Source of the DNA: Escherichia coli | GTDB lineage: Bacteria; Pseudomonadota; Gammaproteobacteria; Enterobacterales; Enterobacteriaceae | NCBI RefSeq assembly: GCF_013315695.1 | Contig: NZ_CP054353.1 | Length of the DNA: 64,000 nt | Reading direction: 5' to 3' (one strand) | Shown here: in pieces, positions 8,023 to 53,468 of the stretch | Position numbering within the stretch: the first letter of the stretch is position 1 | Layout of the letters: every line of letters starts with the position of its first letter | The notes under the pieces: model-generated | What the model saw: the letters and a program-made list of their open reading frames with translations, nothing else | Database searches by the model: none | What the model was told of the DNA's origin: nothing | Position numbers and translations under genes: made by a program

Positions 8023-10658
8023 TGTTTTTCCTCACACTCTTTTCCTTGCGGACAGTCATTTCCCGGCAGACGCGCGTTCTGCTCCAGCCATGCCTGGAGA
8101 TTATCGCCAAAGCGTAAACTGCGCCACAGCGTAAAAATATTCTCTTCATGATGGTAATTAAGATTTACCGTACCGCTTTTACCATCAACGCGACTGGTAC
8201 CTGTAATGTTGGCCTGCATGGTTAATAAACCGAGATTATCTAAATTAATTTTTGTCGATGAACGGCTAATTTCCATATAGCGCAACCAGTTAATTGCTGA
8301 ACCCGCGGTCATATTGTCTTTCACCACCGCATCTGCGGTGTCTTTATCCAGCCGCAAGGTCATCGGCCCGCTATTTGCCAGCCAGCCGTCTTTCACTATC
8401 CATTTTTCGTTGTTTAGCCATAACGGCAATGCACCACTAAATGCCCCGGACATGGCGAATTGTTTCGGATTGACGGCGCTAACCAGTTCGCTGGAGGAAA
8501 GATTATTCAGCCGCAACAGCGCCGGGTCATGTTGCGGCATACGTAATTGTTTCATCAGCACGTTACCGCCTAACACATCAACGCTAACATCAGTCAACAG
8601 CAATGGTTCTTCTTCAGTCCACGGATAACGACCTTGCAAATCAGCCGTAATATTTTTCGCTGTCACCAGATTAATCACTTCGGCAATTCGCAACGTAACG
8701 GGGCCGCGAGTCCCCAGATGCCAGGCTCCATCGGCAAAACGGAAAGGCAGGACAAAATCGACACCGTTAACCTGATTATCTGGCATCCAGGCACTACCGC
8801 CTTTCAACACACCGTGCCCTCCCGCGCGGAATCCTTGTTCAGGCGCAGCAGAAAATGCGACCTGGGCATATAGTTCGCCATCGCGTAAGTTCATCTTCCA
8901 GTCGGGTGGCACCAGCGGCTGGAATACGGTCAGTGATTGTTTAGGCCACCAGGCGTTACCGCGCAGACGAATACCGTCCCAGCGACCATTTACCCGAACC
9001 GGGCCAATCTCACCAGCATGTAAATCGCCTTTAAAGAGGAAATACGTCGGATCGCGTCCATCGACGCTAAATTTTAAGGTTGATGGCGGTAACACACTGC
9101 CGCCAGTGAACAGCGTTTGCCCGGCGTCCAGTGACAGCGCGCCGCTAAAGGAGGGATGCTGTGCGTCACGTACCCAGACGACGGGCTTGTCGAGAATTAG
9201 TCGCGGCTTTTCAACCGTCATCGTACCGTATTGTAACTGGTCGAAACCGGTGGAGAGATCGGTCAGCGTAATCGTGCTGTCATGCCACTCACCCTTTCCT
9301 GCGACATCCCAGGTGGCATTCATCGGTGTAAAACTGCCTTTTCCCCAGTAGCGCCACTGCCAGCGGCCAGCGTCAGGGAGAAAATCATTCGCCAGTCCAT
9401 CCATATGCAGCACGAAATCGCCCAGTTCATTTTCATGCGCCTGCAAAATGGCCTGCAAACGTCCGTCAACACCACGTTGGGTGACTTTTACACCCGCTAA
9501 AGGCCAGCGGATTTCATCGATGTCCAGCGAATCAATGACTCTTCCCTTTGAACGAAGTAACGCGCCTGGCTCAAAGGTCAACGTTGGGTCAGACAGACTT
9601 CCACTTAGCTGCGCAGGTAAACGGGCATATAAAATGAGGTCCGCCTGTTTCGCTTCACCGGTCAGTTGCATAGGCAGCTGGCTGTTATCCATGCTTAATT
9701 TTCCTGGGCCAAAATTAAGCACCGCGTTGCCTTTACCCGCTTGCCCCTGGGTCAGCACACTCAGTCGTCCGCTGACCAGAGCGTTCTCGAGCCCTGCCTG
9801 CCAGTTGTCGACTTTGACACCCAGTCGGCCACTCAAAGGAAAACCTGCATACGGCCAGCTCCAGCGACCATCGCTTACGGTCAATTGTTGACGAGTAATT
9901 TGCCACGGCAAATCGAGCAACGGATCGCCGTTATCCCGTGCCAGCACGATCAATTGCCCGCTATTTTCCTGCCAGTCCAGCTCTGCATCCACCAGTGACG
10001 GTTCCTGCGGCAAGTTTAACGTCGCAGTAGCATGCCCACTTACCGGAAGTCCATCCGGCACGAGCGGCATAGTAAATTCCCCCTCCAGTTTAACCGGCGG
10101 CTGATTTTCAAACGCGACGACATCCAGTTCGCTGACTGTAAGTTGTTGCCCTTTCAGCTGGCCTTGAAATTTAACTTTTTCGCCCTGATAACGCAGTTGC
10201 TGGATATCGGAGGTTAATGCGAGAGAGAGTTTTCCCTGCCATTCCTGCCAGGGAGAAAAAATCAGTTTATCGATATTGATCCAAGTGTTAGGCAACATGG
10301 CCTGCCACTGCGCGAGGTTTTTTGGAGCGGCTGGCGATTGCTCCGTCTGCGGCAATTTCGCCAGACAAGTAGAATCAAGTTCTACCGTGCCGACGTTCAA
10401 TAACCAGCGGCTGGGATGTGAAAGGCTGGCGTTGGTGATATGCGCAAGCTGACAATCTCCCACCAGATAACGGAGATCGGGAATGATTAAACCTTTACGC
10501 GTAATGCGTGGGCTTTCATCTAATGCAATACGTGTCCCGAGCGGTAGCCAGATGCCCGCCAGCGTGGGAACCCACAGCCCGAGCGTCATCAGCAGCGTCA
10601 ACGGCACAAGAATAATCAGTAATAACAGCGCGAGAACGGCTTTATATTTACCCAGCAT
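8019..10658 (-). CDS. ydbH: AsmA/TamB-like large envelope protein YdbH
   Basis: 879-aa ORF with N-terminal TM anchor (MLGKYKAVLALLLLIILVPL...); divergent from ldhA as in K-12. Confidence 0.9.
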   Translation of the reverse strand: MLGKYKAVLALLLLIILVPLTLLMTLGLWVPTLAGIWLPLGTRIALDESPRITRKGLIIPDLRYLVGDCQLAHITNASLSHPSRWLLNVGTVELDSTCLAKLPQTEQSPAAPKNLAQWQAMLPNTWINIDKLIFSPWQEWQGKLSLALTSDIQQLRYQGEKVKFQGQLKGQQLTVSELDVVAFENQPPVKLEGEFTMPLVPDGLPVSGHATATLNLPQEPSLVDAELDWQENSGQLIVLARDNGDPLLDLPWQITRQQLTVSDGRWSWPYAGFPLSGRLGVKVDNWQAGLENALVSGRLSVLTQGQAGKGNAVLNFGPGKLSMDNSQLPMQLTGEAKQADLILYARLPAQLSGSLSDPTLTFEPGALLRSKGRVIDSLDIDEIRWPLAGVKVTQRGVDGRLQAILQAHENELGDFVLHMDGLANDFLPDAGRWQWRYWGKGSFTPMNATWDVAGKGEWHDSTITLTDLSTGFDQLQYGTMTVEKPRLILDKPVVWVRDAQHPSFSGALSLDAGQTLFTGGSVLPPSTLKFSVDGRDPTYFLFKGDLHAGEIGPVRVNGRWDGIRLRGNAWWPKQSLTVFQPLVPPDWKMNLRDGELYAQVAFSAAPEQGFRAGGHGVLKGGSAWMPDNQVNGVDFVLPFRFADGAWHLGTRGPVTLRIAEVINLVTAKNITADLQGRYPWTEEEPLLLTDVSVDVLGGNVLMKQLRMPQHDPALLRLNNLSSSELVSAVNPKQFAMSGAFSGALPLWLNNEKWIVKDGWLANSGPMTLRLDKDTADAVVKDNMTAGSAINWLRYMEISRSSTKINLDNLGLLTMQANITGTSRVDGKSGTVNLNYHHEENIFTLWRSLRFGDNLQAWLEQNARLPGNDCPQGKECEEKQ

Positions 10659-26226: not shown

Positions 26227-26711
26227 CGATTAAAACGTCTACTCCTGCTGTTCCAGAATAACTTCATAAAATGGGAGTATTTTTCGGTGACGAGATAATA
26301 AGAACAGTTTGCGCTATCACTCTGATGTTGAATGATGCCCTTCCGTTCTAATTTTTTCATAACCGGGTTACGGCAAGGAGAAGTGATAATAAGATTTCCT
26401 GTTTTAAGGAAATCTTTAAATACAGCGATTTCTTTCTCAGATAAACGAAGCAATACTCGTTGCTCTGGTAGTAATGAATAATGCTTTTGAATATGTGCTC
26501 GCAATCTTGAGAAGGAAATGGCGACCACGAAAGAAAAGGCAAAAACGATAATCTGAAAGAGCCAAGGTATTTCAGTATAAGCATTGAATGCGACAGTAAA
26601 CTCTTTCGGTATCAGCCAGAGAGTGAGACCAAAAATGATAATCGTATACATAAGTCTTTCGAGTGGCTCGTTAGCAAAAAGTTTCAATAATGGAGTAGAT
26701 ACATCCAACAT
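26223..26711 (-). CDS. sieB: Superinfection exclusion protein B
   Basis: ORF track 26223..26834; ATG at 26709-26711 gives MLDVSTPLLKLFANEPLERLMYTIIIFGLTLWLIP... (162 aa) with two TM helices. Confidence 0.85.
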   Translation of the reverse strand: MLDVSTPLLKLFANEPLERLMYTIIIFGLTLWLIPKEFTVAFNAYTEIPWLFQIIVFAFSFVVAISFSRLRAHIQKHYSLLPEQRVLLRLSEKEIAVFKDFLKTGNLIITSPCRNPVMKKLERKGIIQHQSDSANCSYYLVTEKYSHFMKLFWNSRSRRFNR

Positions 26712-27893: not shown

Positions 27894-27994
27894 AAGAAAT
27901 AGCCTGCGTATGGCGCAGGCTATGAACAGTGTGTATCCGGCAAGATCATTCACTGAACAAAACGAATTTTAATCTGAGTTGAGGTTAAAAAACA

Positions 27995-30595: not shown

Positions 30596-31397
30596 GCAAC
30601 CACCAATCGCAAAAGCCGATCTGCAAAAAACTCAGGGAAACCGTGCACCAGCAGCAGTTAAAAATAGCGACGTGATTAGTTTTATTAACCAGCCATCAAT
30701 GAAAGAGCAACTGGCAGCAGCTCTTCCACGCCATATGACGGCTGAACGTATGATCCGTATCGCCACCACAGAAATTCGTAAAGTTCCGGCGTTAGGAAAC
30801 TGTGACACTATGAGTTTTGTCAGTGCGATCGTACAGTGTTCACAGCTCGGACTTGAGCCAGGTAGCGCCCTCGGTCATGCATATTTACTGCCTTTTGGTA
30901 ATAAAAACGAAAAGAGCGGTAAAAAGAACGTTCAGCTAATCATTGGCTATCGCGGCATGATTGATCTGGCTCGCCGTTCTGGTCAAATCGCCAGCCTGTC
31001 AGCCCGTGTTGTCCGTGAAGGTGACGAGTTTAGCTTCGAATTTGGCCTTGATGAAAAGTTAATACACCGCCCGGGAGAAAACGAAGATGCCCCGGTTACC
31101 CACGTCTATGCTGTCGCAAGACTGAAAGACGGAGGTACTCAGTTTGAAGTTATGACGCGCAAACAGATTGAGCTGGTGCGCAGCCTGAGTAAAGCTGGTA
31201 ATAACGGGCCGTGGGTAACTCACTGGGAAGAAATGGCAAAGAAAACGGCTATTCGTCGCCTGTTCAAATATCTGCCCGTATCAATTGAGATCCAGCGTGC
31301 AGTATCAATGGATGAAAAGGAACCACTGACAATCGATCCTGCAGATTCCTCTGTATTAACCGGGGAATACAGTGTAATCGATAATTCAGAGGAATAA
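30588..31397 (+). CDS. recT: Single-strand annealing recombinase RecT
   Basis: ORF track 30531..31397; ATG at 30588 gives [35 protein letters not shown]... (269 aa). Confidence 0.95.
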
Positions 31398-31453
31398 TTC
31401 AGCCTGGCGGTGTAATGCACCGCCAACTTGAAATATTTTTTATGAGAAAAATT

Positions 31454-31648
31454 ATGAGATATGACAATGTTAAACCATGTCCATTTTGTGGTTGTCCATC
31501 AGTAACGGTGAAAGTCATTTCAGGATATTACCGAGCGAAGTGTAACGGATGCGAATCCCGAACCGGTTATGGTGGAAGTGAAAAAGAAGCACTCGAAAGA
31601 TGGAATAAACGAACCACTGGAAATAATAACGGAGGTGTTCATGTATAA
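31454..31648 (+). CDS. ralR: Restriction-alleviation protein / type I toxin RalR (Lar)
   Basis: ORF track 31415..31648; ATG at 31454 gives MRYDNVKPCPFCGCPSVTVKVISGYYRAKCNGCESRTGYGG... (64 aa). Confidence 0.85.
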   Translation: MRYDNVKPCPFCGCPSVTVKVISGYYRAKCNGCESRTGYGGSEKEALERWNKRTTGNNNGGVHV

Positions 31649-32145: not shown

Positions 32146-33379
32146 ATGTCTAAATTACCAACAGGTGTCGAGATTAGAGGTAGATACATTCGCATCTGGT
32201 TCATGTTTCGAGGAAAACGATGTCGGGAAACATTAAAAGGCTGGGAGATTACAAACAGTAATATTAAAAAGGCCGGAAATTTAAGAGCGCTGATAGTTCA
32301 TGAAATAAACTCCGGTAAATTTGAGTATTTAAGACGTTTTCCCCAGTCCAGCACTGGGGCAAAAATGGTGATAACGAGAGTCATAAAAACGTTCGGAGAG
32401 CTTTGTGATATCTGGACAAAAATTAAAGAGACAGAGTTAACAACAAACACAATAAAGAAAACGAAATCACAATTAAAAACACTCAGAATAATAATTTGTG
32501 AAAGTACCCTGATATCACATATTCGTTATAGCGATATCTTAAACTACCGGAATGAACTGCTGCATGGAGAAACGCTTTACCTGGATAATCCAAGATCCAA
32601 CAAAAAAGGAAGAACCGTGCGCACAGTTGATAACTATATCGCCCTGCTCTGTTCGCTGTTACGTTTTGCGTATCAGTCGGGATTTATATCAACCAAACCA
32701 TTTGAAGGAGAAAAAATTACAGCGAAACAGAATAAAGCCTGATCCGTTATCTAAAACAGAATTCAATGCATTAATGGAAAGTGAAAAAGGACAGAGCCAG
32801 AACATGTGGAAATTTGCAGTTTACTCAGGACTTCGTCACGGGGAACTGGCAGCTCTGGCGTGGGAGGATGTGGATCTCGAAAAGGGAATAGTGAATGTCA
32901 GAAGAAACCTGACGATACTTGATATGTTCGGTCCCCCAAAAACAAATGCCGGGATCCGGACAGTAACACTACTGCAGCCTGCTCTTGAAGCACTGAAGGA
33001 GCAATACAAACTGACCGGGCATCATCGCAAAAGCGAAATCACCTTTTATCATCGGGAGTACGGCAGAACCGAAAAGCAAAAACTGCATTTTGTTTTCATG
33101 CCCAGGGTGTGTAACGGAAAACAAAAACCTTATTACTCGGTAAGCAGTTTGGGGGCAAGGTGGAATGCAGCAGTAAAACGTGCTGGTATTCGCCGCCGTA
33201 ATCCGTACCATACGCGGCATACTTTTGCCTGCTGGCTGTTGACGGCAGGAGCGAACCCGGCATTTATAGCCAGCCAAATGGGGCATGAAACTGCGCAGAT
33301 GGTGTATGAAATTTACGGTATGTGGATTGATGACATGAACGACGAACAGATAGCCATGTTGAATGCGCGGTTATCATAG
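32146..33379 (+). pseudogene. intR: Rac-prophage tyrosine integrase, apparently split by a +/-1 frameshift near 32709-32716
   Basis: ORF 32146..32742 (198 aa, ...STKPFEGEKITAKQNKA*) and ORF 32552..33379 carry the N- and C-terminal parts (catalytic ...HTRHTFACWLL...) in adjacent frames; frames switch in the run gagaaaaaatt; the sum of the parts is about 411 codons. Confidence 0.7.
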
Positions 33380-33430: not shown

Positions 33431-34366
33431 ATGCAAGAAAATCAACAAATTACAAAGAAAGAACAATACAACCTGAACAAATTACAAAAACGTCTGCGTC
33501 GTAACGTGGGCGAAGCCATTGCTGACTTCAATATGATTGAAGAAGGCGATCGCATCATGGTTTGCCTCTCCGGGGGTAAAGACAGCTATACCATGCTGGA
33601 AATTCTGCGCAATTTGCAGCAAAGCGCGCCAATCAATTTTTCGCTGGTGGCTGTTAACCTCGATCAAAAACAACCGGGCTTCCCGGAACACGTTCTGCCC
33701 GAGTATCTTGAAAAGCTGGGCGTTGAGTACAAGATTGTGGAAGAGAACACTTACGGTATCGTGAAAGAGAAGATTCCGGAGGGCAAAACCACTTGCTCAC
33801 TGTGTTCTCGTCTTCGTCGCGGTATCCTTTATCGCACCGCAACGGAACTGGGGGCGACGAAGATCGCGTTGGGTCACCATCGTGACGATATCCTGCAAAC
33901 GCTGTTCTTAAATATGTTCTACGGCGGCAAGATGAAAGGTATGCCTCCGAAACTGATGAGCGATGATGGCAAACATATCGTGATTCGCCCGCTGGCCTAC
34001 TGCCGCGAGAAAGATATTCAGCGCTTTGCCGATGCAAAAGCGTTCCCGATTATTCCGTGCAACCTGTGCGGTTCACAGCCTAACCTGCAACGTCAGGTGA
34101 TTGCTGACATGTTGCGTGACTGGGATAAACGTTATCCGGGGCGTATCGAGACGATGTTCAGCGCGATGCAGAATGTGGTGCCATCGCATCTGTGCGATAC
34201 CAACCTGTTCGATTTCAAAGGCATTACCCACGGTTCTGAAGTGGTTAACGGGGGTGATCTGGCGTTTGATCGCGAAGAGATCCCTCTACAACCGGCGGGT
34301 TGGCAGCCTGAAGAAGATGAAAATCAGTTGGATGAGTTACGACTGAATGTGGTTGAAGTGAAATAA
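33431..34366 (+). CDS. ttcA: tRNA 2-thiocytidine(32) synthetase TtcA
   Basis: 311-aa ORF with PP-loop SGGKDS and CxxC motifs; the att core lies inside its first 50 nt. Confidence 0.95.
33455..33480. repeat. Prophage attachment core, left copy (26-bp direct repeat)
   Basis: aagaaagaacaatacaacctgaacaa, identical to 19132..19157. Confidence 0.75.
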
Positions 34367-43605: not shown

Positions 43606-45132
43606 ATGAGTATGTCATCCATACCGTCGTCCTCCCAATCCGGGAAGCTCTATGGCTGGGTCGAAAGAATTGGTAACAAGGTTCCCCATCCTTTTTTGCT
43701 CTTTATCTATTTGATTATCGTACTCATGGTGACGACGGCAATTTTGTCGGCCTTTGGCGTCAGTGCGAAAAACCCGACCGATGGTACGCCGGTGGTGGTG
43801 AAAAACCTGCTCAGTGTGGAAGGATTACACTGGTTTTTACCCAATGTTATTAAAAACTTTAGCGGTTTTGCTCCACTTGGCGCGATCCTGGCGCTGGTTT
43901 TAGGTGCCTGTCTGGCGGAGCGCGTCGGCTTACTGCCAGCGTTGATGGTTAAAATGGCATCGCATGTGAATGCCCGCTACGCCAGTTATATGGTGCTGTT
44001 TATTGCTTTTTTCAGCCACATTTCTTCCGATGCGGCGTTAGTGATCATGCCACCGATGGGTGCGCTAATTTTTCTGGCGGTGGGCAGGCATCCAGTTGCA
44101 GGTTTACTGGCTGCCATTGCAGGCGTAGGTTGCGGTTTTACGGCTAATTTACTGATTGTCACAACCGACGTGTTGCTGTCGGGGATCAGCACGGAGGCTG
44201 CGGCTGCGTTCAATCCGCAAATGCACGTCAGTGTAATTGATAACTGGTATTTTATGGCCAGCTCCGTAGTCGTACTGACGATTGTTGGCGGCCTGATAAC
44301 CGACAAAATCATTGAGCCACGTTTAGGTCAATGGCAGGGAAACAGCGATGAGAAACTGCAGACATTGACCGAAAGTCAGCGTTTTGGTTTACGCATAGCA
44401 GGTGTCGTATCGCTACTTTTTATTGCTGCGATTGCGCTGATGGTGATCCCGGAAAACGGGATATTGCGCGATCCGATTAATCACACCGTGATGCCATCAC
44501 CCTTTATTAAAGGTATCGTGCCACTGATCATTCTTTTTTTCTTTGTGGTCTCGCTGGCTTATGGCATCGCTACCCGCACAATTCGACGTCAGGCGGATTT
44601 ACCGCATTTAATGATTGAACCGATGAAAGAGATGGCGGGATTTATCGTGATGGTTTTTCCCCTCGCCCAGTTTGTCGCCATGTTTAACTGGAGCAACATG
44701 GGGAAATTCATCGCCGTGGGGCTGACCGATATACTGGAAAGTTCAGGGCTTAGCGGCATCCCGGCGTTTGTCGGTCTGGCGTTGCTTTCCTCTTTCTTAT
44801 GCATGTTTATCGCCAGCGGTTCCGCAATCTGGTCGATTCTGGCCCCCATTTTCGTACCAATGTTTATGCTACTTGGCTTTCACCCGGCATTTGCGCAAAT
44901 CCTCTTTCGTATTGCCGACTCATCCGTATTGCCTTTAGCACCAGTATCTCCTTTTGTTCCACTGTTTCTTGGATTCCTGCAACGCTACAAACCAGACGCG
45001 AAACTGGGTACTTACTATTCGTTAGTTTTGCCCTATCCACTTATCTTTTTGGTGGTATGGCTGCTGATGTTGCTGGCGTGGTATCTTGTCGGTCTGCCGA
45101 TAGGTCCGGGGATTTACCCACGTTTGTCTTAA
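43606..45132 (+). CDS. abgT: p-Aminobenzoyl-glutamate transporter
   Basis: ORF track 43600..45132; [30 protein letters not shown]...; polytopic AbgT-family membrane protein. Confidence 0.9.
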
Positions 45133-45142
45133 GAGAGAACGG

Positions 45143-45658
45143 ATGCTGAGATTACTTGAAGAAAAAATTGTCACGCCACTGGGTCCACTGTGGGTGATTT
45201 GCGATGAGCAATTTCGCCTGCGGGCGGTTGAATGGGAAGAGTACAGCGAACGCATGGTGCAGCTGCTGGACATCCATTACCGCAAAGAAGGCTATGAACG
45301 CATTTCTGCCACCAACCCAGGTGGTTTAAGTGACAAGCTTCGTGAATATTTTGCCGGTAATCTTAGCATTATTGATACGCTTCCCACTGCCACGGGGGGG
45401 ACGCCATTTCAGCGCGAAGTCTGGAAAACACTACGTACTATCCCCTGCGGGCAGGTAATGCATTACGGCCAACTGGCTGAACAATTGGGCCGCCCCGGTG
45501 CGGCGCGTGCCGTAGGTGCGGCAAATGGATCGAATCCCATCAGCATTGTTGTGCCTTGTCATCGGGTCATTGGCAGAAACGGTACCATGACCGGATATGC
45601 AGGCGGAGTTCAGCGAAAAGAGTGGTTATTACGCCACGAAGGTTATCTTTTGCTGTAA
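45143..45658 (+). CDS. ogt: O6-alkylguanine-DNA alkyltransferase
   Basis: 171-aa ORF with active-site PCHRV motif. Confidence 0.95.
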
Positions 45659-45819
45659 ACATTAAACAATTTGTGCCAGCTTGTTCACACTTTTATGTAA
45701 AGTCACCCTTAACAACTTAAGGGTTTTCAAATAGATAGACATATATTTACATCTAATATCGGAATTCTCTGCTGTTAAGGTTTGCTTAGACTTACTTGCT
45801 CCCTAAAAAGATGTTAAAA

Positions 45820-45833
45820 TTGACAAATATCAA
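45820..45833. promoter_or_regulatory. FNR autoregulatory site in the fnr promoter
   Basis: ttgacaaatatcaa (TTGAT-N4-ATCAA), 20 bp upstream of the fnr ATG. Confidence 0.6.
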
Positions 45834-45852
45834 TTACGGCTTGAGCAGACCT

Positions 45853-46605
45853 ATGATCCCGGAAAAGCGAATTATACGGCGCATTCAGTCTGGCGGTTGT
45901 GCTATCCATTGCCAGGATTGCAGCATCAGCCAGCTTTGCATCCCGTTCACACTCAACGAACATGAGCTTGATCAGCTTGATAATATCATTGAGCGGAAGA
46001 AGCCTATTCAGAAAGGCCAGACGCTGTTTAAGGCTGGTGATGAACTAAAATCGCTTTATGCCATCCGCTCCGGTACGATTAAAAGTTATACCATTACTGA
46101 GCAAGGCGACGAGCAAATCACTGGTTTCCATTTAGCTGGTGACCTGGTGGGATTTGATGCAATCGGCAGCGGTCATCACCCGAGCTTCGCGCAGGCGCTG
46201 GAAACCTCGATGGTATGTGAAATCCCGTTCGAAACGCTGGACGATTTGTCCGGTAAAATGCCGAATCTGCGTCAGCAGATGATGCGTCTGATGAGCGGTG
46301 AAATCAAAGGCGATCAGGACATGATCCTGCTGTTGTCGAAGAAAAATGCCGAGGAACGTCTGGCTGCATTCATCTACAACCTGTCCCGTCGTTTTGCCCA
46401 ACGCGGCTTCTCCCCTCGTGAATTCCGCCTGACGATGACTCGTGGCGATATCGGTAACTATCTGGGCCTGACGGTAGAAACCATCAGCCGTCTGCTGGGT
46501 CGCTTCCAGAAAAGCGGTATGCTAGCAGTCAAAGGTAAATACATCACCATCGAAAATAACGATGCGCTGGCCCAGCTTGCTGGTCACACGCGTAACGTTG
46601 CCTGA
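45853..46605 (+). CDS. fnr: Anaerobic global regulator FNR
   Basis: ORF track 45796..46605; ATG at 45853 gives [32 protein letters not shown]... (250 aa) with the Cys cluster and C-terminal helix-turn-helix. Confidence 0.97.
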
Positions 46606-46625
46606 TTCTTCCGCATAACTCACTA

Positions 46626-46674
46626 TCCTTCTGTCATATCATTAAATTTTTCTGATTTATTGATCTGACAGAAG
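46626..46674. repeat. Perfect 10-bp inverted repeat with a 29-bp AT-rich spacer downstream of fnr
   Basis: ccttctgtca (46626-46635) ... tgacagaagg (46665-46674). Confidence 0.4.
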
Positions 46675-46756
46675 GTTCATCACTGTTTCATTCACCAGAT
46701 ATGGGTTAATCTTTTAATTACAAACTGCGTTGACAGTTGTTGTAAGGAGACCCTGT

Positions 46757-47707
46757 ATGGCTATGTATCAGAACATGCTCGTTGTTATCGATCCTAACCA
46801 GGACGACCAACCAGCATTGCGGCGAGCTGTTTATTTACATCAACGGATTGGTGGCAAAATTAAAGCCTTTTTGCCGATCTATGACTTCTCATACGAAATG
46901 ACCACCCTGCTCTCTCCGGACGAACGTACCGCTATGCGTCAGGGCGTCATCAGCCAGCGTACAGCCTGGATCCACGAGCAGGCAAAATATTATCTCAATG
47001 CTGGCGTTCCCATTGAAATTAAAGTGGTCTGGCATAACCGTCCTTTCGAAGCCATCATTCAGGAAGTGATCAGCGGCGGGCACGATTTGGTGCTAAAAAT
47101 GGCGCACCAACATGACCGTCTGGAAGCGGTGATTTTTACGCCAACGGACTGGCATCTGTTACGCAAATGCCCAAGCCCCGTGTGGATGGTGAAAGACCAG
47201 CCGTGGCCGGAAGGGGGTAAGGCGCTGGTGGCGGTGAATCTCGCCAGTGAAGAGCCGTACCATAATGCGCTCAATGAAAAACTGGTCAAAGAGACGATCG
47301 AACTGGCGGAACAAGTCAACCATACCGAAGTTCATCTGGTTGGCGCTTATCCGGTAACGCCAATTAATATCGCGATTGAACTGCCGGAATTTGATCCGAG
47401 CGTTTATAACGATGCCATTCGTGGGCAACATTTGCTGGCAATGAAAGCCCTGCGGCAGAAATTCGGCATTAATGAAAACATGACGCACGTAGAAAAAGGT
47501 CTGCCAGAAGAGGTGATTCCTGATTTGGCGGAGCACTTACAGGCGGGGATTGTGGTTCTGGGCACGGTCGGACGTACCGGTATTTCAGCAGCATTCCTCG
47601 GCAACACGGCGGAACAGGTGATTGATCATCTTCGCTGCGACCTGCTGGTCATTAAACCTGACCAGTATCAAACACCCGTTGAACTGGATGACGAAGAAGA
47701 CGATTAA
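46757..47707 (+). CDS. uspE: Universal stress protein E (tandem Usp domains)
   Basis: ORF track 46730..47707; ATG at 46757 (GGAGA upstream) gives [25 protein letters not shown]... (316 aa). Confidence 0.9.
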
Positions 47708-47727
47708 CGACTCTTCAATAACTGACA

Positions 47728-47756
47728 AGGCCCGAGTTATCGGGCCTATTTTTTAC
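47728..47756 (+). terminator. Rho-independent terminator after uspE
   Basis: Stem aggcccg / cgggcct with 6-nt loop followed by ATTTTTT; abuts the ynaJ stop. Confidence 0.6.
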
Positions 47757-48014
47757 TTACTGCTCTTCGCCGCCAAGAAAATAAATTCCCAACGGTATTG
47801 CCAGCAACACAGTAAAGACCAGGCTATAAACAAAAATCATCGATGACTGAATCACATACATTGATGTCGTCCACTCAGACAGCGGAATATTGTACTGTTC
47901 TATAACGCCGCCGATGGTCGCGCGAGTCACAACCGACGCCGCAATAATGAAAACCGCCAACAAACCAAAGAGAAATTTCTTCCCTTTCGCTGACTTCAGT
48001 TTCGCCATAATCAT
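47757..48014 (-). CDS. ynaJ: Small inner-membrane protein YnaJ
   Basis: 85-aa ORF MIMAKLKSAKGKKFLFGLLAVFIIAASVV... with two TM helices. Confidence 0.85.
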   Translation of the reverse strand: MIMAKLKSAKGKKFLFGLLAVFIIAASVVTRATIGGVIEQYNIPLSEWTTSMYVIQSSMIFVYSLVFTVLLAIPLGIYFLGGEEQ

Positions 48015-48257
48015 GATGTAATCCTTGTGCAGACAAATTTCTTGTTACCTAAACGTAACAATACCATGACATTTCACTCTTGTCTGCTCTGAAAACCTCA
48101 CCTCTTAGCTGGATTTACAATCAATGCATTGATTTGTTAGCTAATGTTGCTACTTACTTCCCTGACTATTGATGATCTGAATGAATTGTCGCGGTAAAAT
48201 AGCCCCGCCAGGGGTTTCCGGCATGACGACAATTATCTGGAGGAGCCTGATAAAACA

Positions 48258-49289
48258 ATGATCGCTGAACTGTTTACAAATAATGCGCTTAATCTGGTCA
48301 TTATTTTCGGTAGCTGCGCAGCATTGATTCTGATGAGCTTTTGGTTTCGCCGTGGAAATCGTAAAAGAAAAGGATTTTTATTCCATGCGGTGCAATTTTT
48401 AATCTACACCATAATTATTAGTGCTGTTGGTAGCATCATTAACTATGTTATAGAAAACTATAAACTCAAATTTATCACCCCAGGCGTTATCGATTTTATC
48501 TGTACGTCCCTGATTGCGGTTATTCTGACGATTAAGCTATTTCTGCTGATTAATCAGTTTGAAAAACAGCAGATTAAAAAAGGTCGCGATATCACCAGTG
48601 CGCGGATCATGTCGCGCATTATCAAAATCACCATTATTGTGGTGCTTGTTCTGCTTTATGGCGAACATTTCGGCATGAGCCTTTCTGGCTTGTTGACCTT
48701 TGGTGGTATTGGTGGTCTGGCTGTCGGTATGGCCGGTAAAGATATTCTGAGTAACTTCTTTTCCGGGATTATGCTCTATTTCGACCGTCCTTTCAGTATT
48801 GGCGACTGGATCCGTTCACCGGACAGAAATATCGAAGGTACAGTAGCGGAAATTGGCTGGCGAATTACCAAAATTAAGACCTTTGATAATCGTCCATTGT
48901 ACGTACCGAACTCGCTGTTTTCGTCGATCAGCGTAGAAAATCCTGGACGAATGACCAACCGGCGCATTACCACGACCATTGGTTTACGTTATGAGGATGC
49001 GGCAAAAGTGGGCGTTATTGTCGAAGCCGTACGTGAGATGCTGAAAAATCACCCGGCCATCGACCAGCGACAAACCTTACTGGTTTATTTCAACCAGTTT
49101 GCTGATTCGTCATTAAATATTATGGTTTATTGCTTTACCAAAACCACGGTATGGGCTGAATGGCTTGCTGCACAGCAAGACGTTTATTTGAAGATTATCG
49201 ATATTGTACAGTCACACGGCGCGGACTTTGCCTTCCCCAGCCAGACGCTGTATATGGATAACATTACACCGCCGGACCAGGGTCGCTAA
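48258..49289 (+). CDS. ynaI: MscS-family mechanosensitive channel YnaI
   Basis: 343-aa ORF with N-terminal TM helices and the MscS beta-domain. Confidence 0.9.
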
Positions 49290-49339
49290 ATCAGACATCA
49301 CTGGCGTTATCCACAAGGGTAACGCCAGTTCCCATCACA

Positions 49340-50953
49340 TCAATGCTTCACAATATACATAGTCCGACTGTACGCCACATCTTCAGGGTTATTAATGGGA
49401 TAACCTTTCAGCCACGGCTTGATTAATCGTCCATTGGTATATTGATAAATTGGTGCAATCGGTGCTTGCTCCATGAGGATTTTTTCTGCCGCGTTGTAAT
49501 CGGCATTACGCGCTTTAACGGTATTTTCCATCGATGCCTGGGCCAGAACTTTGTCATATGCCGGATTGTTAAAGCGTGAAATATTCCCGGAATGCGTTGA
49601 CGTTAATAATGTCAGGAAAGTGGAGGGTTCATTATAATCCCCTACCCACGAGGCTCGGATAACATCAAAATTGCCGGTGTTACGGCTATCGATATAGGTT
49701 TTCCATTCCTGATTTTGCAATTTAACATCTACGCCAAGGTTCTTTTTCCACATTGATGCTACAGCAATCGCAATTTTTTGATGGTTTTCTGAAGTGTTAT
49801 ACAAAAGCGTCAGCTTCAGCGGTTTTTGCGGACCATAACCAGCTGCGCTCAACAAAGTTTTTGCCTGCGCATTCAGTTCTTCCTGACTCATTTGTTCAAA
49901 CGGCGAAGGTTCCGGCGTAAATCCCGCGGTAACATCTGGTGTAAAATGCCACGCTGGCTTTTCGCCCGTCCCCAACACTTTTTCGGTCATCAGGCGGCGA
50001 TCTATCGTCATACTTAATGCCAGACGAACGCGCTGATCTGCCGTCGGCCCTTTTTGCGTGTTAAACGCATAATAATAGGTCCCGAGCTGCGGCGGCGTAT
50101 AAACCTGCCCCGGAATATCCTTCAACAGCTTCTGATACATATTTTTCGGGAAGGATTCGGTGATATCAATATCCCCCGCGAGGTAACGCTTAGTGGCTGC
50201 GGATTCCTGATTAATTGGCAGGAAGGTCACTTTTTGCAGTACCGTTTTGGCGTTATCCCAATAATGGGTATTCGGCACCACGACCAGTTTTTCATTGACT
50301 ACGCGCTCTTTAAGAACATAAGCGCCATTGCCGATCAGATTTCCGGGTTTCGTCCACTCTTTACTGCTTTCTACGTTGGCTTTTTGCACCGGGAAGAAGG
50401 CAAAGTTAGCGGTTAAATTCACAAACCACGGCAACGGTTTATCAAGCTGGATTTTCAAAGTATGGGCATCAACTGCGGTGACGCCAAGCTGGTCAGGCGC
50501 GGCTTTACCATCAATAATCGCCTGTGCGTTGTTGATTCCCGCCAGCGCGGCAAACCATGCAAATGGCGATAGCGTTTTCGGGTCCACCAGACGTTGCCAG
50601 CTGTAGACAAAATCTTGCGCCGTTACCGGTGTGCCATCCGCCCATTTTGCGTTATCGCGCAGGGTAAAAGTCCAGATACGGTTGTCATTACTTTTCCACT
50701 GAGTCGCAACGCCGGGGACAATCTCCCCTTTCTCGTTCTGATTCACCAGTCCTTCAAACAGATCGCGAATGACCTGAATCTCTGGCAGACCCACGGCTTT
50801 AGCGGGATCCAGCGACGCTGGCTCATCTTTAATGTGGCGCACCAGCTCCTGCTTCTCTGCCAGTACTGTGCCGCTCGGAACTTCAGCAGCATACGAAAGA
50901 GAAATGCTGCTGACCAACAGCGCACAACACGTGACTGAAACAGAGTGCTTCAT
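49340..50953 (-). CDS. mppA: Murein tripeptide ABC-transporter periplasmic binding protein
   Basis: ORF track 49340..50974; ATG at 50951-50953 gives MKHSVSVTCCALLVSSISLSYA... (537 aa), OppA-like. Confidence 0.9.
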   Translation of the reverse strand: MKHSVSVTCCALLVSSISLSYAAEVPSGTVLAEKQELVRHIKDEPASLDPAKAVGLPEIQVIRDLFEGLVNQNEKGEIVPGVATQWKSNDNRIWTFTLRDNAKWADGTPVTAQDFVYSWQRLVDPKTLSPFAWFAALAGINNAQAIIDGKAAPDQLGVTAVDAHTLKIQLDKPLPWFVNLTANFAFFPVQKANVESSKEWTKPGNLIGNGAYVLKERVVNEKLVVVPNTHYWDNAKTVLQKVTFLPINQESAATKRYLAGDIDITESFPKNMYQKLLKDIPGQVYTPPQLGTYYYAFNTQKGPTADQRVRLALSMTIDRRLMTEKVLGTGEKPAWHFTPDVTAGFTPEPSPFEQMSQEELNAQAKTLLSAAGYGPQKPLKLTLLYNTSENHQKIAIAVASMWKKNLGVDVKLQNQEWKTYIDSRNTGNFDVIRASWVGDYNEPSTFLTLLTSTHSGNISRFNNPAYDKVLAQASMENTVKARNADYNAAEKILMEQAPIAPIYQYTNGRLIKPWLKGYPINNPEDVAYSRTMYIVKH

Positions 50954-53432: not shown

Positions 53433-53468
53433 AATATGCCTGATGGTGTTGCACCATCAGGCATATTC
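53433..53468. terminator. Bidirectional terminator between tpx and tyrR
   Basis: 15-bp perfect stem atatgcctgatggtg / caccatcaggcatat with 3-nt loop. Confidence 0.6.

Follow-up and report, generated by a model that had tools for sequence, protein, structure and literature searches.

The spacer of 151 bp between fnr and uspE holds an inverted repeat whose role raises a question, namely whether it works in DNA, as part of the region upstream of uspE, or in RNA, as part of the fnr transcript. In enteric bacteria FNR acts as the master oxygen regulator, and its level is under tight control. The way in which the fnr mRNA ends, and in which this end is stabilised, seems to be undescribed in the literature searched, and the element is now defined precisely. 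The window, which is the whole stretch of 64,000 nucleotides analysed, is a segment of a non-K-12 Escherichia coli chromosome with a gene content that includes abgT, ogt, fnr, uspE and ynaJ. The sequence comparisons favour, with moderate confidence, a reading in which one 49-bp stretch combines two overlapping functions, that of an RNA hairpin at the 3' end of fnr and that of an upstream element of the uspE promoter. The features of the locus are given below in window coordinates, with the K-12 start sites of uspE converted through the ATG at 46757.

45853..46605, plus strand: fnr coding sequence (250 amino acids and TGA stop), from the open reading frame table and from RefSeq, which annotates it in E. 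coli genomes that have the identical region.
46603-46605, plus strand: fnr stop codon TGA.
46606..46626, plus strand: C-rich, G-poor linker from the fnr stop codon to the hairpin, read from the sequence.
46627..46647, plus strand: hairpin 5' arm CCTTCTGTCATATCATTAAAT, variable between genera with its complementarity to the 3' arm kept.
46648..46654, plus strand: hairpin loop TTTTCTG, in which RNAfold closes one further U.G pair and leaves 5 nt unpaired.
46655..46675, plus strand: hairpin 3' arm ATTTATTGATCTGACAGAAGG, which spans -65 to -45 when counted from the uspE start at 46720.
46654..46669, no strand given: conserved motif GATTTATTGATCTG(A/G)C, a putative uspE upstream element, from invariant columns of the 49-species alignment.
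46660-46665: near-invariant TTGATC within the motif, equal to -60 to -55 relative to the uspE start site.
46668, plus strand: A/G polymorphism within E. coli, A in the window (U-A pair) and G in K-12.
46676..46705, plus strand: pyrimidine-rich, G-poor tail 3' of the stem (TTCATCACTGTTTCATTCACC...), without a U-tract.
46683..46691, plus strand: sigma-70 -35 region of uspE, CTGTTTCAT, from the alignment and Mendoza-Vargas et al. 2009 (PMC2760140, supplementary file 3).
46705..46712, plus strand: -10 region of uspE, GTTAATCT, with the hexamer TAATCT at 46707-46712, from the alignment and PMC2760140.
46718..46720, plus strand: uspE start sites, in K-12 at -39 (5' RACE) and -37 (454 sequencing) from the ATG (PMC2760140).
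46757..47707, plus strand: uspE coding sequence (316 amino acids and stop).
47728..47757, plus strand: canonical intrinsic terminator of uspE (8-bp GC-rich stem, 4-nt loop, T-run), which serves as an internal contrast.

The original prediction described a perfect 10-bp inverted repeat, CCTTCTGTCA and TGACAGAAGG, separated by a long AT-rich spacer. The two 10-mers are present and fully complementary, although their coordinates, 46627-46636 and 46666-46675, exceed those first given by one base, and the first of them begins at the 22nd nucleotide past the fnr stop codon. The 29 nt between them do not form a long loop, as most of these bases are themselves paired. A repeat search extends the arms to 21 nt (46627-46647 and 46655-46675), with 19 of the 21 positions complementary and 7 nt in between. 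On the plus strand RNAfold predicts one hairpin in which 20 pairs enclose a loop of 5 nt, with an energy of -24.3 kcal/mol, a GC-rich base and an AU-rich top (z = -4.7; none of 200 dinucleotide shuffles is equally stable), and the minus strand of the same region adopts a weaker fold than the plus strand. The GC content of the element is 31%, and of the 1634 segments of 60 nt with GC of at most 36%, none folds on either strand as stably as the full hairpin. The runner-up among such AT-rich folds is located at about 31396-31455 (-19.7 kcal/mol on the plus strand and -18.9 on the minus strand). The 10-mer by itself constitutes little proof, because 1.8 +/- 1.2 perfect 10-bp inverted repeats with a spacer of 3-40 nt are expected per shuffled window, against 10 observed. 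Another inverted repeat of the window, at 53433-53467, has perfect arms of 16 bp with a 3-nt spacer, and further perfect repeats of at least 10 bp with short spacers are found at 1430-1459, 9692-9721, 26391-26416, 27899-27923, 33088-33126, 33811-33863, 49300-49329 and 50883-50913; these other perfect repeats are probably terminators or REP-like elements. A scan of 45000-48500 with Rfam 15 revealed no match over 46600-46700 even at E <= 10, and the four weak matches outside the hairpin are at chance level. Similarly, a scan with consensus promoters and terminators called no element over the hairpin or over the promoter of uspE.

Of 5426 complete E. coli genomes, 5396 carry the 49-mer, always in a single copy; RefSeq places no annotation over it in E. 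coli genomes. The 49-mer exactly as it stands in the window occurs in 1277 of the 5396, the remainder differing at one base or more. The 10-bp repeat is thus perfect in the window and in only a minority of E. coli genomes. The three variant genomes that were inspected, K-12 MG1655 among them, carry G at 46668 (TGGCAGAAGG). Through this A46668G change a U-A pair of plus-strand RNA becomes a U.G wobble; the DNA acquires a T.G mismatch, and the minus strand an A.C mismatch. A second difference in the spacer, C in the window and T in K-12, is located at 46608, 3 nt past the fnr stop and outside the hairpin. In the clinical isolate E. coli Z247 (NZ_CP021207.1) the IS30-family element ISApl1 lies between the hairpin and uspE (L002:2630-3740). 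Homology of Z247 to the window ends at about 46719, at the mapped uspE start, and uspE is there separated from its own promoter.

A scan for UspE with one genome per species provided 80 Enterobacteriaceae loci among the matches listed, and in about 50 of these 80 the end of fnr lies 131-151 nt upstream of uspE. Every compact locus inspected (about 50 species in more than 20 genera) displays a long hairpin 3' of the fnr stop, which begins 8-37 nt past it (median 19) and comprises 14-24 pairs, a loop mostly of 5 nt and an energy of -20 to -30 kcal/mol. Stem length is 19-23 pairs for Escherichia, Citrobacter, Salmonella and Kosakonia, and for Enterobacter, Huaxiibacter and Cedecea it is 14-17. 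Outside the family, hairpin and motif are both present in Pantoea ananatis as well. Poor conservation of the arms in close relatives had been named as the observation that would speak against a functional element, and the structure is instead kept throughout these species. One record of the set, L088 (AP025685.1), is labelled Salmonella enterica serovar Choleraesuis and may be mislabelled: its UspE is only 88% identical to that of E. coli, and its fnr-uspE spacer (TTGCCGGGTAATAATTT...TTGACCCGGCAA; ...GGTTAATCTTACTTTAC) resembles those of Cedecea and Buttiauxella, unlike the two S. enterica subspecies in the set.

The pairing of the two arms was assessed on a sequence-only MAFFT alignment of 49 species. 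RNAalifold recovered only the five most conserved pairs from this alignment, and therefore the full stem of 22 pairs was imposed by hand and its pairs counted. Paired cells amount to 84%, against 28-46% when the partners are slid by 1-3 columns, and both sides change at 12 of the 22 pairs; none of 500 shuffles matches the observed values. The 3' arm is close to invariant, in contrast to a variable 5' arm. The changes of the 5' arm at core pairs are nearly all transitions that keep a wobble, as illustrated by one pair that is A-U in 33 sequences, G.U in 14 and other in 1, and by a second that is G.U in 30, A-U in 15 and other in 2. RNAalifold also reports a 5-bp helix between GGGTT (46703-46707, in the uspE -10 region) and GACCC (46749-46753, after the Shine-Dalgarno), at columns 103-107 and 152-156, which could form only in fnr read-through RNA. 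One of its pairs changes from G-C to A-U in 14 species, which may merely reflect two clades.

The plus-strand fold is more stable than the minus-strand fold in 41 of 45 distinct sequences, by a mean difference of -5.1 kcal/mol, and for this reason the hairpin is an RNA structure of the fnr 3' UTR and not a symmetric DNA site. Positions of the stem that depart from Watson-Crick pairing comprise 122 G.U pairs against 6 A.C mismatches, an excess that would be partly automatic if the G/U-rich 3' arm were fixed for other reasons and the 5' arm changed by transitions. Transversions are nearly absent from core pairs, which still favours RNA pairing. Changes of the 5' arm that keep a wobble are those predicted for pairing in fnr-sense RNA and are disallowed for a symmetric protein site or a cruciform. 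It is extremely unlikely that the palindrome is a feature of the DNA, either the site of a dimeric uspE regulator or a cruciform that renders the promoter sensitive to supercoiling. Such a feature would be well placed, directly upstream of the uspE -35 and with a 3' half conserved together with uspE, but arms of 21 bp far exceed operator half-sites, the two halves are very unequally conserved, and neither a duplex nor a cruciform tolerates the asymmetry seen in the non-Watson-Crick positions and in the strand energies. In addition, uspE retains a single half in 29 species. The suggestion in the original prediction of a protein-binding site upstream of uspE is plausible for the 3' half only, which stays at a fixed distance from uspE even where the 5' arm has been lost. 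A dimeric DNA-binding protein does not explain the symmetry of the arms. The other suggestion made there, a structured element in the uspE upstream region, holds as regards a conserved and covarying hairpin. This hairpin, in contrast, belongs to plus-strand RNA of the fnr 3' UTR and lies outside the uspE mRNA, because the uspE start is 43-45 nt downstream.

The hairpin resembles an intrinsic terminator in its stable stem (here unusually long) and its short loop near the stop codon, and lacks the tract of 7-8 U-rich nucleotides that directly follows the stem of such terminators. In the 8 nt past the stem, five or more U occur in none of 45 species, the mean is 2.9 and E. coli has three (UUCAUCAC); the sequence that follows the stem is AAAACUUCC in Enterobacter and AGGCUCAU in Klebsiella. 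The view that this is no classical terminator was thus correct, although the reason first offered, a loop that is too long, was not: the loop has 5-7 nt and it is the U-tract that is missing. The 30 nt past the stem contain on average 8.1 C and 4.1 G, with C exceeding G in 44 of 49 species, although the rut-like signal is weak, since C and G are about equal beyond these first 30 nt. Across species the mean composition of the linker is 38% C and 12% G. Dar and Sorek 2018 (PMC6061677) described Rho-dependent E. coli transcripts whose steady-state 3' ends carry stable stem-loops that no uridine-rich tail follows; these stem-loops protect against PNPase and RNase II and have a rut-like excess of C over G just downstream. 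The same authors expect stem-loops that lack U to interconvert with intrinsic terminators in evolution, and consider that those with weak U-tails may be inefficient intrinsic terminators with Rho as a backup. The fnr hairpin has the attributes of such a protective 3' stem-loop, being stable, devoid of a U-rich tail and directly followed by the bias of C over G. The supplements of Adams et al. 2021, which focus on 5' UTR and internal ends, show no 3' end at the hairpin among the entries listed, and neither the TERMITe nor the Cappable-seq data hold a relevant entry for fnr or uspE. A full-text literature search on the fnr terminator, on fnr-uspE and on the hairpin sequences also returned nothing relevant.

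The closest rival explanation is that of a plain Rho-independent terminator of fnr, non-canonical in its long stem and weak U-tail (UUCAUCACUGUUUCAUUC in E. coli), which would be self-sufficient with moderate efficiency and would leave the 3' arm constrained by RNA pairing only. It differs mainly in mechanism and is considered unlikely, albeit with some real chance. The distance of the stem from the stop codon and its GC-rich base agree with it, as does the replacement of the hairpin by canonical terminators in seven lineages (below), and inefficient weak-U stem-loops backed by Rho are a class allowed for by Dar and Sorek (PMC6061677). However, no U-tract is conserved among the 45 species, and many genera have the U-poor sequences given above for Enterobacter or Klebsiella. 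Two observations on the 3' arm, that its motif stays invariant beside uspE after loss of the 5' arm and that its bases are invariant even where they are unpaired, are also left unexplained by a terminator. A third role for the stem, as an RNase III site in the fnr 3' UTR at which a protective hairpin would be removed, in the manner of lambda sib, or an fnr-uspE read-through transcript processed, is very unlikely. The 19-23 pairs of several genera, about two helical turns, do exceed what a terminator or a barrier to exonucleases needs. Against this, the stem has only 14-16 bp in Enterobacter, Huaxiibacter and Cedecea, short canonical terminators substitute for it in seven lineages, and the literature search gave no RNase III data for fnr, the tiling-array paper naming only fnrS.

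The 3' arm appears to have a second set of constraints, which would belong to the uspE promoter. Both start sites mapped in K-12 and the sigma-70 -35 and -10 regions assigned to them (CTGTTTCAT and GTTAATCT) are those of Mendoza-Vargas et al. 2009 (PMC2760140), and the intergenic region drives a PuspE-gfp reporter (PMC2831072). The published -35 and -10 coincide with invariant blocks of the 49-species alignment, and CTGTTTCA of the -35 region is invariant in all 49 species. The motif GATTTATTGATCTGGC extends from -66 to -51 relative to the mapped start. Bases of the 3' arm that are unpaired in many species, at positions of T.T or C.T mismatch, are nonetheless invariant. In E. coli, Pantoea and Erwinia alike, TTGATC stands 37-39 nt from the -10, although the intervening sequence differs. 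Erwinia amylovora has other GC-rich hairpins past fnr and keeps ATATTGATCCG; Erwinia billingiae has the same 44 nt as E. amylovora with one difference, and no fnr was called in the 1.5 kb upstream. The motif thus holds a fixed position in relation to the core promoter and is retained with the gene, as expected of an upstream element. From this pattern of conservation it appears to be a sequence-specific upstream element of the sigma-70 promoter of uspE, and is probably a binding site, still putative, for a protein.

Candidate sites were compared with the motif by eye, on the basis of their consensus sequences, and rejected. For sigma-54 the TGGCA is present and the -12 GC absent, and for sigma-32 the arrangement TTGATC-N13-CCCCCTGT fits Enterobacter and not E. 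coli. Sites for CRP or FNR centred near -61 match in one half-site only, a LexA box (CTGT-N8-CCAG) is found only in Escherichia, and a Pho box for PhoB is limited to a single repeat. The motif may also resemble the IHF core (YAANNNNTTGATW) and, on the complementary strand, the nucleation motif of H-NS (TCGATAAATT), both of which are tentative leads.

It is highly doubtful that the motif acts in RNA, as a site for a protein or small RNA on fnr read-through transcripts or in a longer uspE leader from an upstream promoter. Such a leader is conceivable in Erwinia, because an extended -10 (TGTTATAAT) is found there just upstream of TTGATC, and a site in RNA would suit bases that are invariant even when unpaired. 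In contrast, the mapped start sites of K-12 lie about 50 nt downstream of the motif, the alignment offers no TAnnnT candidate for a -10 in the enterobacterial motif or loop, and the constant spacing to the -10 suits a promoter element rather than an RNA site.

The two halves of the hairpin are separable, and have been separated in nature. In 29 of the 80 listed species, additional DNA lies between fnr and uspE; it measures from about 90 to over 1300 bp and is of at least five kinds that are unrelated in content. The loci are the following.

Split loci: L010, L014, L016-L018, L020-L026, L029-L031, L040, L044, L046 and L047.
Split loci, remainder: L063-L065, L067-L069, L078, L081, L082 and L084.

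In the examples compared with intact relatives, homology to the compact arrangement begins again close to the hairpin apex. On the uspE side of the split loci the loop, the 3' arm and the promoter are kept and the 5' arm is gone, and the local folding energy there changes from -22.5 kcal/mol in intact loci to -12.1 in split ones. The identity of the motif is 14.8 of 16 in the 29 split loci and 14.9 of 16 in intact loci, a retention that is partly due to shared ancestry, because the 29 represent perhaps five or more independent insertion events and not 29. Its start is likewise held at a median of -98 from the uspE ATG in split loci, against -99 in intact ones. The fnr side is visible in 13 split loci, six of which keep the long hairpin, while seven have a canonical GC stem followed by a run of at least six U. 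These canonical terminators may have arrived with the inserted DNA, without selection as replacements. All six copies of the hairpin on the fnr side have lost the exact ATTGATC core (AATGGTT, ACTGGTA, AACGATC, ATCGATC, ATTGGTC), and the 5' arm compensates. The split loci can be interpreted, from these sequences, to mean that fnr requires a 3' stem-loop, be it the old hairpin or a true terminator, and that uspE requires the motif.

A duplicated segment with the loop, the 3' arm and the -35 flanks the insert on both sides in Citrobacter and in Enterobacter/Lelliottia, and the apex of the hairpin may be a recurrent point of insertion or duplication. The inserts hold unannotated open reading frames (L063:~860-1220 and L082, in Yokenella and Trabulsiella; L017/L022/L025:~1215-1390). 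One encodes a cysteine-rich protein of 118-119 amino acids (MNWEIKNMLVCPDSG...) and another a hydrophobic peptide of about 55 amino acids that is read from a duplicated uspE-like promoter. A Pfam search of the inserted reading frames found nothing significant.

From the strand, conservation and covariation of the structure, the position of the uspE start and the separable halves, we infer the following mechanism of termination and end protection, with a protein bound at the motif. Once the polymerase passes the fnr stop, the nascent plus-strand RNA would fold into the hairpin of about 20 bp, which would form the 3'-terminal structure of the fnr mRNA. Because a U-tract is absent, the hairpin by itself is probably poor at releasing the polymerase, and transcription would be likely to end with assistance from Rho, or else at weak sites a short way downstream, where the flank is rich in C and poor in G. 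Trimming by 3'-5' exonucleases back to the base of the stem would then set and protect the fnr 3' end, and the hairpin end so trimmed would limit read-through into the uspE promoter. In DNA, the downstream half would serve as the uspE upstream element, most likely bound by a protein. The 5' arm would evolve freely, mainly by transitions that give G.U pairs, and in this way track the constrained 3' arm.

Since 21 bp are shared by the fnr hairpin and the uspE promoter, a coupling of expression is conceivable. It is quite unlikely, however, that the overlap is itself regulatory, in the sense that polymerase traffic from fnr, or a factor that acts on both DNA and RNA, would couple FNR to a stress protein, with the apex as an entry point for genes. 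If this were true, the recurrent inserts at the apex (at least five kinds in the 29 species, several with duplications) would point to a specific mechanism of recombination or duplication at the palindrome. In the preferred reading of two overlapping functions, the locus constitutes a natural case of an RNA hairpin and a promoter element on one sequence that have been repeatedly parted by insertions. It illustrates how wobble pairing frees one arm while the other is fixed, as well as the interchange between U-less stem-loops and terminators. From a practical perspective, deletion of fnr or cloning of a "uspE promoter" from the intergenic region must allow for the overlap. The overlap and its repeated resolution by insertions appear to be a neat, modest finding.

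Several known systems share features with the two elements. The fnr hairpin resembles lambda sib and other RNase III retroregulation hairpins in its length of about 20 bp and its position downstream of a coding sequence, and differs in that its stem is shorter than 20 bp in some genera. Like REP and BIME elements, the fnr hairpin is a palindrome that is imperfect and extragenic, lies in a 3' UTR and could serve as a barrier to exonucleases; unlike them, it is single-copy in the 5396 E. coli genomes, low in GC, devoid of the REP consensus and without a match in Rfam. Canonical terminators, such as that of uspE at 47728-47757, have in common with it the location past a stop codon, the GC-rich base and the short loop, and they have replaced it in seven lineages. 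In contrast to these, the fnr hairpin lacks a U-tract in 45 of 45 species, has a stem two to three times longer and has no upstream A-tract. The motif, for its part, is comparable to upstream promoter elements and to the sites of class I activators or nucleoid proteins that have their centre near -55 to -62 of sigma-70 promoters, given its location from -66 to -51, its fixed spacing to the -10 and the fact that it travels with uspE. It is not A/T-tract-like, in contrast to the rrnB UP element, and by eye it does not conform to the CRP/FNR consensus. The stem-loops of Dar and Sorek (PMC6061677) provide the parallel for the hairpin in its place just past a coding sequence, in the missing U-rich tail and in the excess of C over G directly downstream, and, as those authors predicted, it can give way to intrinsic terminators in evolution. 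Relative to these stem-loops the fnr stem, at about 20 bp, is of unusual length and AU-rich in its upper half, and both the Rho dependence and a 3' end at the stem base are putative for fnr. The fnr hairpin is thus a known kind of element, packed unusually tightly with the uspE promoter.
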